NCBI RefSeq assembly: GCF_004010195.1
Contig: NC_057718.1
Location: 97,699,300-97,763,299 of the forward strand
Length of the DNA: 64,000 nucleotides
Direction: 5' to 3'
DNA from: Chiloscyllium plagiosum
Lineage: Eukaryota
In this document: in pieces, positions 2,467 through 58,265 of the stretch
Position numbering within the stretch: position 1 is the stretch's first letter
Layout of the letters: each line of letters opens with the position of its first letter
Made by a program: the position numbers and the translations under genes
Notes under the pieces: model-generated
Database searches by the model: none
The model's input: only the letters and a program-made list of their open reading frames with translations
Told to the model about the DNA's origin: nothing

Positions 2467-2565
2467 ATTCCTGATGAAGGGCTTTTGCCCGAAACGTCGG
2501 TTTTCCTGCTCCTCGGATGCTGCCTGAACTGCTGTGCTTTTCCAGCACCACACTAATCCAGAATC
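2467..2565 (+). mobile_element. Penelope-like element end (solo) with minimal hammerhead motif
   Basis: attc-CTGATGA-a-gggc-tttt-gccc-GAAA-cgtc at 2467-2498, followed by the family tail. Confidence 0.75.
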
Positions 2566-13286: not shown

Positions 13287-13373
13287 TTGGAAGACGCGCA
13301 GAGCAAAAGGCAAGAGAAGTTGGTGGACAAACACAAAGAAGTGCGTCAGCAAATTCTGGACGAGAAACCTAAG
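13287..13373 (+). CDS. PLCB1: PLCB1 penultimate constitutive coding exon (87 nt)
   Basis: Polypyrimidine tract plus ccccag| acceptor, AAG|gtacaa donor, phase 0/0. Encodes [29 protein letters not shown] (mammalian [29 protein letters not shown]). Confidence 0.97.
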
Positions 13374-22919: not shown

Positions 22920-24130
22920 CATAGAATCCCTACATTGTGGGAGCAGGCCATTCAGCCCATCAAGTCCACACTGACCATCCAAAGAGCATCCCAACCAGAT
23001 AACCCCACTCCCCACCCCATTATATTCCTGTAACCCTGCATTTCCCATGGCTGACCCACCTCGCCTGCACATACAATTTAGCATGGCCAATCCACCCTAA
23101 CCCGCACATCCTGGACACAAGGGAACCATTTAGCATGGCCAATCCATCTAACTTGCACATCCTTGGAGTGGGGGAGGAAACCCACGAAGTCATTTACTGG
23201 TCAGAGTATTGAGTACAGGAGTTGGGAGGTCATGCTGCGACTGTACAGGACATTGGTTAGGCCACTGTTGGAATATTGTGTGCAATTCTGGTCTCCTTCC
23301 TATTGGAAAGATGTTGTGAAACTTGAAAGGGTTCAGAAAAGATTTACAAGGTTATTGCCAGGGTTGGAGGATCTGAGCTACTGGGAGCGGCTGAACAGGC
23401 TGGGGCTGGAGTGTCGGAAGCTGAGGGGTGCCCTTATATAGGTTTACAAAATTATGAGGGGCATGGATAGGATAAATAGGCAGTCTTTTCCCTGGTAAAA
23501 ACAATGACTGCAGATGCTGGAAACCAGATTCTGGATCAGTGGTGCTGGAAGGGCACAGCAATTCAGGCAGCATTCGACGAGCAGCAAAATCGACGTTTCG
23601 GGCAAAAGCCCTTCATCAGGAATGATGAAGGGCTTTTGCCCGAAACGTCGATTTTGCTGCTCGTCGAATGCTGCCTGAATTGCTGTGCTCTTCCAGCACC
23701 ACTGATCCAGTCTTTTCCCTGGGGTCGGGGAGTCCAGAACTAAAGGGCATAGGTTTAGGTTGAGAGGGGAAAGATATAAAAGAGACCAAGGGGCAACTTT
23801 TTCACACAGAGAGTGGTATGTGTATGGAATGAGCTGCCAGAGGATGTGGTGGAGGCTGGTACAATTGCAACATTTAAAAGGCATTTGGATGGGCATATGA
23901 ATCAGAAGGGTTTGGAGGGATATGGGCCGGGTGCTGGCAGGTGGGACTAGATTGGGTTGGGACATCTGCTCAGCATGGACGAGTTGGACCGAAGGGTCTG
24001 TTTCTATGCTGTACACCTCTATGACTTTATGACACAGCAGAATGTGCAAACTCCACACACGCAATCACTCAAGGCTGGAATTGAACCTGGGTCCCTGGCA
24101 CAGTAAGCAGTGCTAACCACTGAACCACTA
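22920..24130 (-). mobile_element. V-SINE split by a + strand CR1 (~23190-24030)
   Basis: SINE tail and V-domain at 22920-23185, SINE head at ~24032-24130. The CR1 between encodes SIEYRSWEVMLRLYRTLVRPLLEYCVQFWSP. Confidence 0.85.
23496..23707. mobile_element. Penelope-like hairpin element, family A, inside CR1
   Basis: Near-perfect ~85-bp inverted arms. 15-bp duplication cagtcttttccctgg at 23481-23495 and 23708-23722. Confidence 0.85.
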
Positions 24131-29873: not shown

Positions 29874-30089
29874 CAGCAAAAGTCGATATTGCAGATTCTG
29901 GAGATTAGAGTCAAGATTAGAGTAGTGCTGGAAAAGCACAGCAGGTCAGGCAGCATCTGAGGAGCAGGAAAATTGACGTTTCAGGCAAAAGCCCTTCATT
30001 AGGAATGGACCTGATGCCCGAAACGTCGATTGTCCTGCTCCTCGGATGCTGCCTGACCTGCTGTGCTTTTCCAGCACTACTCTAATCTT
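29874..30089. mobile_element. Penelope-like hairpin element, family A
   Basis: Inverted arms. 15-bp duplication gaccctttatctttt at 29859-29873 and 30090-30104. Confidence 0.85.
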
Positions 30090-31537: not shown

Positions 31538-31840
31538 TTAAAAACAATGACTGCAGATGCTGGAAACCAGATTCTGGATTAGTGGTGCTGGAAGAGCACA
31601 GCAGTTCAGGCAGCATCCGAGGAGCAGTAGAATCGACGTTTTGAGCAAAAGCCCTTCGTCAGGAATAAAGGCAGAGAGCCTGAAGGGTGGAGAGATAAGT
31701 GAGAGGAGGGTGCTTATCTCTCCACCCTTCAGGCTCTCTGCCTTTATTCCTGATGAAGGGCTTTTGCTCGAAACGTCGATTCTACTGCTCCTCGGATGCT
31801 GCCTGAACTGCTGTGCTCTTCCAGCACCACTAATCCAGAA
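31538..31840. mobile_element. Penelope-like hairpin element, family A
   Basis: 130-bp arms at 31570-31699 and 31713-31842 with 2 mismatches. Duplication tcccttcttaac(c/t)gg at 31523-31537 and 31841-31855. Confidence 0.88.
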
Positions 31841-33753: not shown

Positions 33754-34319
33754 GTTTTGGATGTAGGTTTGCTCACTGAGCTGGAAGGTTCATTTCCAGA
33801 TGTTTCGTCACCCTACTAGGTAACATCTTCAGTGGGCCTCAGGCAAAACAATGCTGAAAATTCCTGCTTTCTATTTATATGTTTGGGTTTCTTTGGGTTG
33901 GTGATGTCATGTCCTGTGGTCATGTCATTTCCAGTGGTGAAGTCACTTCCTGTTCCTTTTCTCATGGGGTGGTAGATGGGGTCTAACTCGATGTATTTGT
34001 TGATAGAGTTCAACTGGGTCCAACCAGAACTCTATCAACAAACACATCGAGTTAGACCCCATCTACCACCGCCTGAGAAAAAGAATAGTAAGTGACTTCA
34101 CCACAGGAAATAACATCACCACAGGAAATGGCATCACCAACCCAAAGAAACCCAAACATATAAATAGAAAGCAGGAATTTTCAGCATTGCTTCGCCTGAG
34201 GCCCACTGAAGATGTTACCTAGTAGGGTGACGAAAGTCTGGAAATTAACCTTACAACTCAGCGAGCAAACCTACATCCAGAACCTCAACCTGAGCTACAA
34301 ATCTTCTCAAAACTCACTA
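33754..34319. mobile_element. Penelope-like hairpin element, family C, with ORF C-terminal remnant
   Basis: ~255-bp inverted arms. The arm encodes NSINKHIELDPIY, resembling the end of a Penelope GIY-YIG ORF. Hammerhead-like ctgaagatgttacctagtagggtgacgaaa. Duplication atac(t/c)ttcaa at 33744-33753 and 34320-34329. Confidence 0.8.
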
Positions 34320-42872: not shown

Positions 42873-42915
42873 ATGTTGATTGTTTAACAAGTGAGCAATT
42901 ACTGGGAAAATGATA

Positions 42916-44629
42916 GTTGAAACTTTATTGCTGGAACAGCACAGCAGGTCAGGCAGCATCCAGGGAACAGGAGATTCGACGTTTCGGGCACAGGCCCTTC
43001 TTCAGGAATGAGCAGAGAGTGTTCAGCAGGAGAAGATAAAAGGTAGGGAGGAGGGACTTGGAGGAGGGGCGTTGGAAATGTGATAGGTGGAAAGAGGTCA
43101 AGGTGAGGGTGATAGGTCGGAGTAGGATGGAGGCGGAGAGGTCAAGAAGAAGACTGCAGGTCAGGAAGGCGGTGCCGGGCTGGAGGGATTCGGCTGAGAC
43201 AAGGTGACATGTAAATTGCCTGCTATGTGTCAACACTGACTGTACTTCCAAAGTACTTTATTGGCTGTAAAGCATTTTGGATCTTTCTGTGGCCATAACA
43301 GTTACTATATAAATGCAATTTAATTTTAATAACTCAATAGTTACTCATAGAAATCTAATGTTATATCACTGGGATGCTTTTTTGCCATTATTATGGCAAT
43401 AATGTTTTTTTCAAATTTAAAAAAAAGTTATGATATTTCAGCTACTTTAATCCCATGTGTATCACTGATGATTTGTATTTACTCTGTGGAAATTTTAATT
43501 GAGTAGAAGATTTTACTGCATTTTACTTTCTGATTTGCTGTTTGAGAATACTTCAGTGTAATTGGCTGCCAACTCCCTGCGGTGATATCACTGTTACTGT
43601 ATGCCTAGTGTTTGTCTTGATCTTGCACATATCAAGAAAGGGAAACTTCATGCCTCAGAGATCACTAGATAGCAGAAAATCCCTTTAATACTTCAAAGTA
43701 CTCTTTTGGTATGATCCTAGATATTGAATATTGTTAGATATTATTACTGGAGCGAATCATAGATTTACATTTAAATAGTTCCCATTTCTGTCTTTGTTCA
43801 CTCCTTTCCTCAGCAATATTTTGTGTTTGATTTTGTCTACTTTCTGTGGTTTTATTTACCCTAATGAAGAAGAGCATATCTTCTCAACATCACAACTATT
43901 GATCTCACCCTGCTTGGCTGTTGTATGGAACCCCCTACGTGTTAACCCCTTAAAGCCAAATACATAACAATATTGTCAAATTTGATGGAATTTTAATGCA
44001 TTTACTTTAGGGGAAATTTGGCATGTTAATATGCTGCAGTTTTTCTTATCTGCGATGTTTTGTGTTATGTTGCTGAAAATATTACTGATGAAATACTTAG
44101 CAGTTGTAGTAAAATCATGCGTATACTTAGGATGAAGAAGATTATGAGTACCACATATGCTTGGTCCAGTTCTTGTTGGATTCATTTGGATATCAAAGTT
44201 GAAACTTTATTGCTGGAACAGCACAGCAGGTCAGGCAGCATCCAGGGAACAGGAGATTCGACGTTTCGGGCACAGGCCCTTCTTCAGGAATGAGCAGAGA
44301 GTGTTCAGCAGGAGAAGATAAAAGGTAGGGAGGAGGGACTTGGAGGAGGGGCGTTGGAAATGTGATAGGTGGAAAGAGCTCCATCCTACTCCGACCTATC
44401 ACCCTCACCTTGACCTCTTTCCACCTATCACATTTCCAACGCCCCTCCTCCAAGTCCCTCCTCCCTACCTTTTATCTTCTCCTGCTGAACACTCTCTGCT
44501 CATTCCTGAAGAAGGGCCTGTGCCCGAAACGTCGAATCTCCTGTTCCCTGGATGCTGCCTGACCTGCTGTGCTGTTCCAGCAATAAAGTTTCAACTTTGA
44601 TCTCCAGCATCTGCAGACCTCACTTTCTC
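42916..44629. mobile_element. Composite Penelope-like insertion: arm (42916-43203), ~1 kb unrelated DNA, hairpin (44192-44629)
   Basis: Arms appear identical in sequence. 14-bp duplication ctgggaaaatgata at 42902-42915 and 44630-44643. Confidence 0.75.
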
Positions 44630-44924
44630 CTGGGAAAATGATATCCTTGTTTCGCGCTGTGGATGTTTGATATACCTGTTTCCTCCGACATTTATGAAAG
44701 GTGTAGTCACTATAAGAACCACCAAACTTTAGTTGACTAAAATGTGTCATGTCCCACTAGGTGTAGTGCAGATAGGAACAAGGTCAAAGGTCCCTTCTGC
44801 CTGCAATTACTCTTGGGTTAGTGGGAGCAAGTGACCAAACACTCGGCCATGACCAAATATGTCGTCATGAACCAAAATGGCATCTTTTTTTTCCTCTAAA
44901 GACTTCCTGTATCCTTTATTGTTT

Positions 44925-45210
44925 TGTGGGATGTGTGCATCACCGGCAGGGTAATATCTGTTGCCTATTCCTAAGTGCCTTTGGTTTGCTCAGTTATTCG
45001 AGCACGAAGGTCAGACCAGGTAAGGAGACCAGTCATTCAGATGGGTTTTTAACAGCAATCAACAATGGGTTCAGGATTGTCATTACTTCAGTTCCAGAGT
45101 TAATCGTTCCACTTAAAATCCAATCAGCTTCTGAGGTAGTATTTGAACCCACGTTCCCCAGAGTATTTCCTCTGGATTACTAGCCCAGTGACATTACCAC
45201 TATACCACCA
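44925..45210 (-). mobile_element. SacSINE1-like DeuSINE (diverged)
   Basis: aggtcagaccaggtaagg...agatgggttttt...atttgaaccc...ctctggattactagcccagtgacattaccacta. Confidence 0.6.
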
Positions 45211-45464
45211 GCTCTTCAGGTTCCCTATTCCTGTCAGATGTGGGTTAAGGAGCATGAGCTTAGGAACAAGCGAAGAGAATTCTTCCTCTTGAGCCTACTC
45301 CTCCATTCAGCCTGGTCATGGTTTGTCTGATTGTGGCTTCAACTCACCATCCAGATGTTGAAATATAGCACCCTTTCTTCTACATCATTGGGTCAAAATC
45401 CTGGAACTCCCTTCCTAATGGCATGGTTGGTGTATCTGCACTAAATGGACTGTGGTTATTTAAG

Positions 45465-45661
45465 TCGAGAGTGGGGTACTGGAAAAGCACAGCAGGTCAG
45501 GCAGCATCCGAGGAGCAGGAGAATCGACATTTCATGCAAGAGCCATTCCTGATGTCCGAAACGTTGATTCTCCTGCTGCTCAGATGCTGCACGACCTGCT
45601 GTGTTTTTCCAGCACCCCACTCTCGACTCTAATCTCCAGCATCTGCAATCCTCACTTTCTC
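45465..45661. mobile_element. Penelope-like hairpin element, family A, inside a LINE tail
   Basis: Inverted arms. 15-bp duplication ctgtggttatttaag at 45450-45464 and 45662-45676. Confidence 0.85.
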
Positions 45662-45877
45662 CTGTGGTTATTTAAGAAAGCAGCTCACCGCCACCTTCTG
45701 AAGAGTAATTAAGGATGGGCAGTGAACACTAGCTCAGTCAGCAATATCTACATCCCATGAGTGAGTAAAAGTAAAAAACAACACTTCCCAACTTGTGCTT
45801 ATCCATTCCTTGTGAGTTTTGTACATTTGCAGAAACTTTCCTTTTGTCTGAACTATTAATGAATTGGCTTCAAGCTG

Positions 45878-48455: not shown

Positions 48456-48673
48456 AAGTGAGGACTGCAGATGCTGGAGTTTGGAGTCGAGAATGTGGTG
48501 CTGGAAAAGCACAGCAGGTCAGGCAGCATTAGAGGAGCAGGAGAGTCAACGTTTCAGGCAAAAGCCCTCCATCAGGGCTCCTTCCTGATGGAGGGCTTTT
48601 GCCTGAAACGTTGACTCTCCTGCTCCTCTAATGCTGCCTGACCTGCTGTGCTTTTCCAGCACCACATTCTTGA
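48456..48673. mobile_element. Penelope-like hairpin element, family A
   Basis: Near-perfect arms. 14-bp duplication ttccaggtagatga at 48442-48455 and 48674-48687. Confidence 0.85.
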
Positions 48674-51724: not shown

Positions 51725-52255
51725 GGGAGGCAATAGCCTAGTGGTATTATCACTGGATGGTTAATCCAGACACCCAGGCCATGTTCATGGGTTGAAGTCC
51801 TGCCATTGCAGGTGGTGCTGCCTTTATTCCTGATGAAGGGCTTTTGCCCGAAACGTCGATTTTGCCTGTCCTCGGATGCTGCCTGAATTGCTGTGCTCTT
51901 CCAGCACCACTGATCCAGAAATAGCCTAGTGGTATTATCACTGGATGGTTAATCCAGACACCCAGGCCATGTTCCTGGGTTCAAGTCCTGCCATTGCAGG
52001 TGGTGGAATCTGAATTCAATAAACATCTGGAAATTAAGAATCTAATGGTGACCACGAATCCATTGGAGCTTGTAGGGGGAAAAGCCCATGTGGTTCACTA
52101 ATGTCCTTTAGGGAAGGAAACTGCCATGCTTATATGGTCTGGCCTACATGTGACTCCAGACCCACAGCAATATGATTGACTCTTAACTACCCTCTGTGTA
52201 ATTAGGGCCACAAATGTTGGCCTAGCCAGTGATGCCCTCACCCTGTGAATGAATA
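51725..52255 (+). mobile_element. SacSINE1-like DeuSINE with head duplicated around a Penelope-like end (51818-51919)
   Basis: Head at 51732-51817 is repeated at 51920-52005. The full core and tail follow. Confidence 0.8.
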
Positions 52256-52269
52256 ATTAAAAAAAGGTA

Positions 52270-52493
52270 GGATTAGGGTAATGCTGGAAAAACACAGCAG
52301 GTGAGGCAGCATCTGAGGAGCAGGAAAATTGACGTTTCAGACAAAAGCCCTTCATCAGGAATGAGGGCTGATGAAGGGCTTTTGCCCGAAACGTCGATTC
52401 CCCTGTACCTGCCTGACCTGCTGTGCTTTTCCAGCACTACTCTAATCTTGACTCTAATCTCCAGCATCTTGCAGTACCCACTTTTGCCAAATG
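52270..52493. mobile_element. Penelope-like hairpin element, family A
   Basis: Inverted arms. aaaaaaggta at 52260-52269 and 52494-52503. Confidence 0.8.
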
Positions 52494-58034: not shown

Positions 58035-58265
58035 CTGCAGAGTGATCTCGATCAAGAATACCAGGACAAGTTTAAGAGGCTGCCACTGGAGATCCAAGAA
58101 TTCGTACAGGACACACTGAAGGGGAAGTTCACTGACGATGGAGATCACAGTGCTCCACCTCCCCCCCTAGCTCCAGATAATGGGAAATTGAATCACAAGA
58201 CATGTTCCAATGAGGACGACTTGGAAGACAATAAATCGGATAAAGTCTTCGCTACTTCCCTTTGA
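58035..58265 (+). CDS. PLCB1: PLCB1 terminal coding exon (PLCB1a-type C-terminus, 76 aa)
   Basis: tttgcag| acceptor. Encodes [31 protein letters not shown]...NHKT...KVFATSL*, matching mammalian PLCB1a [31 protein letters not shown]...EFDTPL. Confidence 0.97.

Follow-up and report, generated by a model that had tools for sequence, protein, structure and literature searches.

The last intron of PLCB1 in the shark Chiloscyllium plagiosum contains a 36-nt motif with the layout of a minimal hammerhead ribozyme, which raises the question of what brought the motif there and whether it cuts the RNA of the gene in which it lies. The DNA that was analysed (hereafter the window) is a stretch of 64,000 nucleotides of contig NC_057718.1, and the motif occupies positions 44502-44537 on the sense strand of the 44.7-kb intron. 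A previous sequence-only reading of the window had placed the motif in the end of a Penelope-like element (PLE) and had proposed several potentially self-cleaving motifs in the PLCB1 pre-mRNA. The account that is held here with good confidence is that the motif is the minimal hammerhead of a young Neptune-type PLE, delivered by a two-armed insertion into the last PLCB1 intron, and that it is likely a passenger there that does not cut. The coordinates of the features are collected in Table 1.

Table 1 Features of the PLCB1 window, in window coordinates, with the evidence for each
Feature	Position	Strand	Evidence
Penultimate coding exon of PLCB1	13287..13373	+	AG/GT borders; weak match to PLC-beta3 chain, E 0.64; PLC domain order
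Last coding exon of PLCB1	58035..58265	+	96% identical to shark PLCB1, E 3e-39
Target site duplication, left copy, 14 nt	42902..42915	+	Present once in X3 and X5 contigs bridging both flanks
Antisense arm, left end (ORF end, 3' UTR, core at 43005, short tail)	42916..43206	-	Sequence
AT-rich non-coding body, 980 nt, identical at many assembly sites	43207..44186	.	Suspect gap fill
Second antisense pLTR arm, core at 44287, in suspect fill	44187..44381	-	Assembly only
Sense arm: 5'-truncated pLTR (3' UTR part, hammerhead, long tail)	44379..44629	+	Left limit as assembled
Minimal type I hammerhead motif	44502..44537	+	Sequence; cross-family covariation
Stem I	ATTC 44502-44505 / GAAT 44534-44537	+	Sequence
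Core CTGAAGA	44506-44512	+	Sequence
Extra A	44513	+	Sequence
Stem II	GGGC 44514-44517 / GCCC 44522-44525, loop CTGT	+	Sequence
GAAA box	44526-44529	+	Sequence
Stem III palindrome ACGU	44529-44532	+	Sequence
U16.1; C17; predicted cut	44532; 44533; between 44533 and 44534	+	Sequence
Optional PLE tail of ~35 nt, between two recurring 3' ends	44596..44629	+	Two end points, 30 loci
Target site duplication, right copy, 14 nt	44630..44643	+	Sequence, contigs
Older-subfamily hammerhead copy, solo, stem I of just 2 bp	2467..2502	+	Sequence, folding
Older-subfamily hammerhead copy, head-to-head with 31662 (-)	31746..31781	+	Sequence
Older-subfamily hammerhead copy, solo, U.U mismatch in stem I	51826..51861	+	Sequence, folding

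The motif and the element that carries it

On re-reading of the window the letters and boundaries of the motif proved exact, and the CUGANGA/GAAA core, the 4-bp stems I and II and the predicted cut after C44533 were all present as described. The core boxes CUGANGA, GAAA and UH are intact, and they are invariant in a multi-family alignment. Stem I is short (4 bp), a monomeric stem III is absent, the 15.1-16.1 segment is palindromic, and an unpaired A44513 stands between positions 9 and 10.1, followed by G44514-C44525 as the G10.1-C11.1 pair. Minimal hammerheads (min-HHR) in the pLTRs of metazoan PLEs were described by Cervera and De la Pena 2014 (PMC4209133; this and the other papers cited are represented by their available portions). 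The extra A after the core, which had been singled out, is a listed feature of that class and no oddity, and the palindromic stem III, here ACGU, which had been taken to suit cleavage as dimers, is a published feature of the class as well (PMC4209133).

A family-independent structure descriptor, the kind of search that had been proposed as a check, gave 30 matches in 866,763 bases and 0, 1, 0, 0 and 0 matches in five shuffles. The covariance-model search proposed alongside it did not recover the motif: no hammerhead family was among the 62 Rfam matches up to E 10, and the sole matches in the window were to hairpin-driven miRNAs, below the gathering score. The 36-mer alone has an ordinary folding energy (z -0.81). 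Related sense-strand cores at 2471, 31750 and 51830 had been reported and were found in the window, as were minus-strand cores, two of which (43005 and 44287) belong to copies identical to the motif. The three sense copies have a U.U mismatch and not a fully paired stem I, and their lowest-energy folds differ from the hammerhead fold. A competing inactive fold, in which UGAUG from the core pairs with CGUCG, is open to the older subfamily (2467-2502 and 51826-51861); the young family lacks it owing to its A at N7. Other PLE families are also represented in the window, by cores at 33832 (-), 34206 (+), 8371 (-) and about 371 (-) that have a longer stem II, U for A as the extra base, or an AGCU palindrome.

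Assignment to a Penelope-like end was borne out by longer copies, in which an uninterrupted frame of 684-893 residues has its stop about 150-180 nt upstream of the motif. Upstream of the motif in two such copies, L064 and L066, lie a reverse transcriptase (RT, PF00078) and a GIY-YIG domain (PF01541), and the translations contain DKG, YIDD, a CX4CxxC linker after the RT and a CCHH pattern in the C-terminal GIY-YIG. The sense arm of the present locus matches the 3' end of the RT/EN-coding copy L066 at 98.4%, which places the motif in the pLTR of an element with RT and GIY-YIG. A CCHH GIY-YIG with a CX2-5CxxC linker defines Neptune/Nematis, the linker being common to both (PMC8557442), and by motifs alone the element would be assigned to the Neptune type. 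The sequence at 44502-44537 is a minimal type I hammerhead in the end repeat (pLTR) of this young Neptune-type PLE. Copies were counted by pattern searches of the assembly, each with a reversed-pattern control that returned 0; these gave 6,387 exact copies of the motif 41-mer, 21,012 of the family tail and 81,470 of the intact core with stem II and ACGUCG, all three counts including some hundreds of suspect gap-fill copies.

The 3' ends of family copies fall at two recurring points about 35 nt apart (30 loci). By analogy with the anole element, whose tail is bounded by two RT start sites (PMC11167929), these two ends are likely the two RT start sites. In copies that continue past the tail a putative main ORF starts 162 nt after C3, so that the motif would also stand at the front of the element's RNA. 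The N-terminus of this putative ORF presumably resembles PLE proteins; tblastn against the RT-bearing loci gave no link beyond one 26-aa match. The ATG at 44552 was considered as the start of the main ORF and set aside, as it opens just a 42-codon frame and the likely start lies further on. AATAAA occurs in the tail of the young family (window 44583-44596), and 33 reads of the RNA run X21 depart from the sequence at 44596 with an A-rich end; the AATAAA may be a poly(A) signal, or oligo-dT priming may be at work. Arrays in which 3-5 pLTR units follow one another head to tail, at spacings of about 194-224 nt, were also seen in the assembly (L269-L270, L279-L281 and G000:C8:24157648-24158517), and such short arrays appear retrozyme-like and dimer-competent in layout.

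The probable working of the motif within the element

The sequence-only reading had stated that stem II pairing is kept while the loop varies, and had looked to covariation in stems I and II across genomic copies. Pairing is kept, but the cause within the motif's own lineage is invariance and not covariation: no compensatory change was found among 114 full-length copies, their differences in core and stem II are mainly CpG decay, and the non-CpG differences between subfamilies concern N7, loop II, one stem I base and the tail, and spare the core. Position 44536 is T in 73% and A in 6% of these copies. A fully paired stem I is confined to the young family, older families having U.U or U.C there. 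Covariation was observed between element families. The 171 distinct descriptor matches in 1.56 Mb represent about six families, each with different paired stems I and II, and the palindrome also differs by family (ACGU or AGCU), one family having a non-palindromic ACAU in 7 of the 7 copies listed. In an alignment of 15 copies, chosen by hand from about six families, 92% of cells were paired, two-sided change was seen in 9 of 10 pairs, and the covariation score was 0.776 compared with 0.208 for shuffled and at most 0.205 for slid versions, figures that lean upward because the 15 copies had already passed a pairing filter.

The 5' ends of 30 tail-selected copies, which are non-independent, come from 2.6 Mb of one contig and include 3 in suspect fill, were located relative to C3. 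Twenty start within -11..+6 (16 of them within -6..+1), 7 reach beyond that upstream, another 3 have their first base at +24, +29 and +34, and 0 of 30 start at the cut site (+28). The copies read through the cut site, which implies that the templates of insertion are uncut. Head-to-head pairs were surveyed in a gene set of 866,763 bases comprising PLCB1 and part of the next PLC-beta gene, both on the + strand; 36 of 48 span 172 nt or less, which places their junctions at the motif.

A scheme for the element can be proposed in which transcription would start at the first base of stem I, A44502, the context of which fits the Initiator consensus. Reverse transcription would be initiated about 95 and 130 nt further downstream, at the two sites of the tail, and run off the 5' end, and priming of both target strands would yield short head-to-head stubs. 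Cutting would need two motifs paired through the ACGU palindrome, either in tandem pLTRs or in two RNAs per particle; tandem units 200-320 nt apart are present elsewhere in the genome. It would probably be aided by the element's protein and would be dispensable for insertion. The fuller proposal, in which the hammerhead begins at the first base of the capped RNA, a protein-assisted dimer cut removes a capped leader of 32 nt and acts as a switch that takes the RNA out of translation, and uncut RNA alone is copied into the genome, is tentative and may well be wrong. If it is true, the tens of thousands of shark stubs chart the start site of the element genome-wide, and they offer a direct handle on what PLE hammerheads are for.

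The motif might instead be a catalytically dead relic, or a structural or protein-binding signal that merely resembles a hammerhead. The folding energies are not favourable: the active dimer was calculated at -13.1 kcal/mol and the lowest-energy fold at -18.3 kcal/mol for a pair of 36-mers, and at -48.1 and -53.8 kcal/mol, respectively, for the natural tandem L270, by nearest-neighbour energies that ignore tertiary contacts. Reading through the cut site in genomic copies would also fit a relic, as would run X21, a polyA single-cell library, about 2% read and ill suited for cut ends, in which 519 reads, from both strands, fell on the pLTR arm and none on the unique right flank, with no pile-up of read ends. 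Minimal PLE hammerheads are reported to have no activity as monomers and low activity as dimers, and functions other than cleavage were left open (PMC4209133). Catalytic activity of the motif's family is at most putative, even within the element. Eleven core positions, however, are invariant across families whose stems all changed in pairs, and the related anole motif does cut, with C3G/G8C rescue, in a reaction that is protein-assisted and dispensable for insertion (PMC11167929). A dead relic or a mere structural or protein-binding signal is on this evidence unlikely, and a genuine minimal hammerhead is the preferred reading.

The insertion in the last PLCB1 intron

PLCB1 on the + strand had been named as the host gene, and both exons in the window, each with correct splice borders (Table 1), support this, as do the PH, Y and C-terminal PLC domains upstream on the contig on the same strand. 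A 500-N gap lies in the last intron near 48.85-49.35 kb. Mammalian PLCB1 has a second, alternative last exon. Between the two copies of the 14-nt target, positions 42916-44629 form one insertion event, with the target duplication, inverted truncated arm and optional tail of an EN+ PLE insertion. The left-end antisense arm is complementary to the sense arm at 217 of 217 positions (duplex -475 kcal/mol). As assembled, the second antisense arm forms a 195-bp hairpin with the sense arm (-407 kcal/mol), and no contig bridging the junction of this second arm was among the matches listed; the motif can pair with the flank-anchored left arm whether or not that suspect hairpin is real. The minus-strand copies with cores at 44287 and 43005 might have served as a natural tandem in dimer cleavage, but this idea was rejected, the spacer between them being suspect fill. 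At window position 44474, run X21 has A>G in 5 of 42 reads of one direction and 0 of 31 of the other, with at most 0.1% in DNA contigs, which is possibly editing of the double-stranded arms or an expressed variant copy. Further head-to-head pairs of pLTR stubs form long hairpins at 23540-23700, 29920-30080, 31586-31826, 45453-45664, 48499-48661 and 52279-52439, and several of them give below-threshold Rfam miRNA matches.

In run X3 a single 663-nt contig covers both flanks (contig positions 6-108 and 95-663), and in run X5 a single 654-nt contig does so (555-654 and 1-568). Each has one copy of the target, which shows an empty allele in those animals. The insertion is polymorphic, being absent from at least two other individuals. 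In run X1 a right-flank contig extends by 16 letters into sequence foreign to the element, which points to an empty allele, though the genotype of X1 is ambiguous; the comparison with run X6 was confined to the left part. The insertion allele was seen in none of the runs examined, and we infer it from the target duplication in the assembly. Over the flank 44630-45199 (~570 nt) X3 differs from the window at 8 positions, X5 at 13 and X1 at none, and the flank diversity of X3 and X5 is unusually high for runs under one species label.

The 980-nt body between the arms is probably single-copy host DNA from elsewhere that was pasted in by gap filling. It was first read as a real transduced family. 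On that alternative the 302-copy composite of hairpin and host DNA is real and arose by Penelope-driven transduction in a burst in the sequenced animal, the present locus being a daughter copy. The exact tail/body junction does occur 302 times in the assembly, target duplications are found at many sites, the end is fixed at the two tail sites with a variable far end, and pLTR-mediated capture has a precedent in Adineta (PMC3846280). This reading was nevertheless dropped on depth, identity, length and end points. In 4 of 4 runs from two studies, among which the assembled individual is not singled out, the body has a depth of 3.9-17, compared with 5.5-10.7 for unique flank contigs, a single-copy depth and not that of multiple real genomic copies. 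It lies on one or two long contigs per run, and no joint of the body to the PLE arm at 43206/43207 was among the contigs listed in the four runs. The body is 100% identical at 40 of 40 scored sites, taken from 400 candidates, and a comparison of 86,280 bases over 62 places gave 0 substitutions, against a divergence of 1.6-5.1% from L066 among ORF copies. At 16 loci where the body is shorter than 1 kb, its length varies in lockstep with the point of re-entry into the PLE ORF (r -0.989, slope -1.02), the total falling about 211 +/- 28 nt below that of a simple truncated element, as would be expected had a gap of estimated size been filled wrongly. Another 3 loci, with bodies longer than 1 kb, depart from this relation (rho -0.51 for all 19 together). 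All five of the longest fills terminate at a single CA repeat, and four of these run into Ns. The length lock, single-copy depth, zero substitutions and CA-repeat stop are accounted for by a gap filler on the wrong path through a repeat, and real transduction is regarded as quite unlikely. About 302 PLE insertions (L167-L236 included) carry this same host-like DNA, and other 'captured DNA' between pLTRs in the assembly may be affected.

In the PLCB1 pre-mRNA the flank-anchored antisense arm lies upstream of the sense motif and, being made first, would base-pair with the whole of it and zip it into double-stranded RNA. In the gene set, 206 of 268 profile matches (35 bits or more) divided into 99 sense and 107 antisense. 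Solo copies numbered 51 sense and 59 antisense (p 0.50) and intact copies 17 and 16, and the exact intact pattern was found in 13 + 9 copies compared with 19.9 expected. An antisense partner lies within 1.5 kb of 9 of the 17 intact sense copies. Neither depletion nor enrichment of sense copies was seen in these 866,763 bases. That intronic hammerheads cut the PLCB1 pre-mRNA, alone or as long-range sense pairs, and influence 3' processing, as proposed for amniote intronic hammerheads, is very improbable: 8 of the 17 intact sense copies do lack a close antisense partner, the ACGU common to the motif's lineage makes heterodimers formally possible, and domesticated intronic hammerheads exist in amniotes (PMC6155905), but the insertion is absent in X3 and X5, the motif has a perfect antisense arm upstream, sense copies are neither depleted nor enriched, CpG decay is alike in core and stems, and the solo copies at 2471 and 51830 combine a broken stem I with a competing fold. 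The proposal of self-cleaving motifs in the PLCB1 pre-mRNA holds as far as motif, host gene and sense strand are concerned, but its implied significance is not supported, given the polymorphism, the antisense arm, the lack of strand bias, the unfavoured fold of the active dimer and the nil, low or protein-assisted activity published for the class. The motif in the PLCB1 intron is likely a passenger that does not cut, and a host role in PLCB1 is unlikely.

Comparison with known systems

The shark motif is a further member of the ribozyme class described in 2014 and is of little import alone. New here are the empty allele at a polymorphic site, the test for strand bias and the argument that the 302-copy 'capture' is probably an assembly artefact. 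The role of PLE hammerheads could well be tested in this family, which is young, polymorphic and very abundant and has near-intact ORFs. Many sense copies are tolerated in large shark genes, with no strand bias, which argues against cutting of host pre-mRNA at a level visible to selection. The 302-fold 'captured DNA', probably an artefact, calls for caution with any finding of PLE transduction on this assembly.

Sharks are not named in the main-text portion or supplement file 2 of PMC4209133, and a weak literature search, swamped by unrelated papers, found no shark-specific report of the motif. The likeness to the published min-HHR is close: type I topology, a 4-bp stem I, the unpaired base 9/10.1, G10.1-C11.1 and the palindromic 15.2-16.2 are shared, as are the pLTR location, the many solo copies and opposite-strand pairs and the presence of several families per genome (PMC4209133). 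Min-HHR were reported there in Neptune elements of fishes. Stem II has 4 bp in the shark motif and 7-8 bp in the Schistosoma examples, and intact copies number at least 81,470 in the shark, compared with about 4,000 in coelacanth and 9,000 in Xenopus (PMC4209133).

The Poseidon element PAc of Anolis carolinensis (Frangieh et al. 2024, PMC11167929) resembles the shark element in having a hammerhead followed by a tail with two recurring ends, in the priming of both target strands and in insertion from uncut RNA. The two differ in type, the shark motifs indicating Neptune, and in that the main ORF of PAc starts inside stem II whereas the putative shark start lies 162 nt after C3. The complex insertions of EN+ PLEs (Craig et al. 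2021, PMC8557442; Arkhipova et al. 2013, PMC3846280), with an inverted 5'-truncated copy and a 30-40 bp tail, share with the shark locus the head-to-head arms, the one-sided tail and the target duplication, and they trouble short-read assemblies. The capture in Adineta has a verified empty site (PMC3846280), whereas the apparent host-DNA capture in the shark is probably assembly fill.

Non-LTR retrozymes (bioRxiv 10.64898/2026.07.22.740005) likewise carry type I hammerheads from PLE pLTRs and occur in one chondrichthyan. They form tandem arrays, whereas the shark locus is not head-to-tail, the insertion having a single sense motif with no same-strand neighbour. The ultraconserved intronic hammerheads of amniotes, for example in RECK (PMC6155905), are also of type I and on the sense strand of a large intron. 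Those are canonical, conserved and equipped with tertiary contacts, in contrast to the shark motif, which is minimal, high-copy and polymorphic, at a site with an empty allele in X3 and X5.
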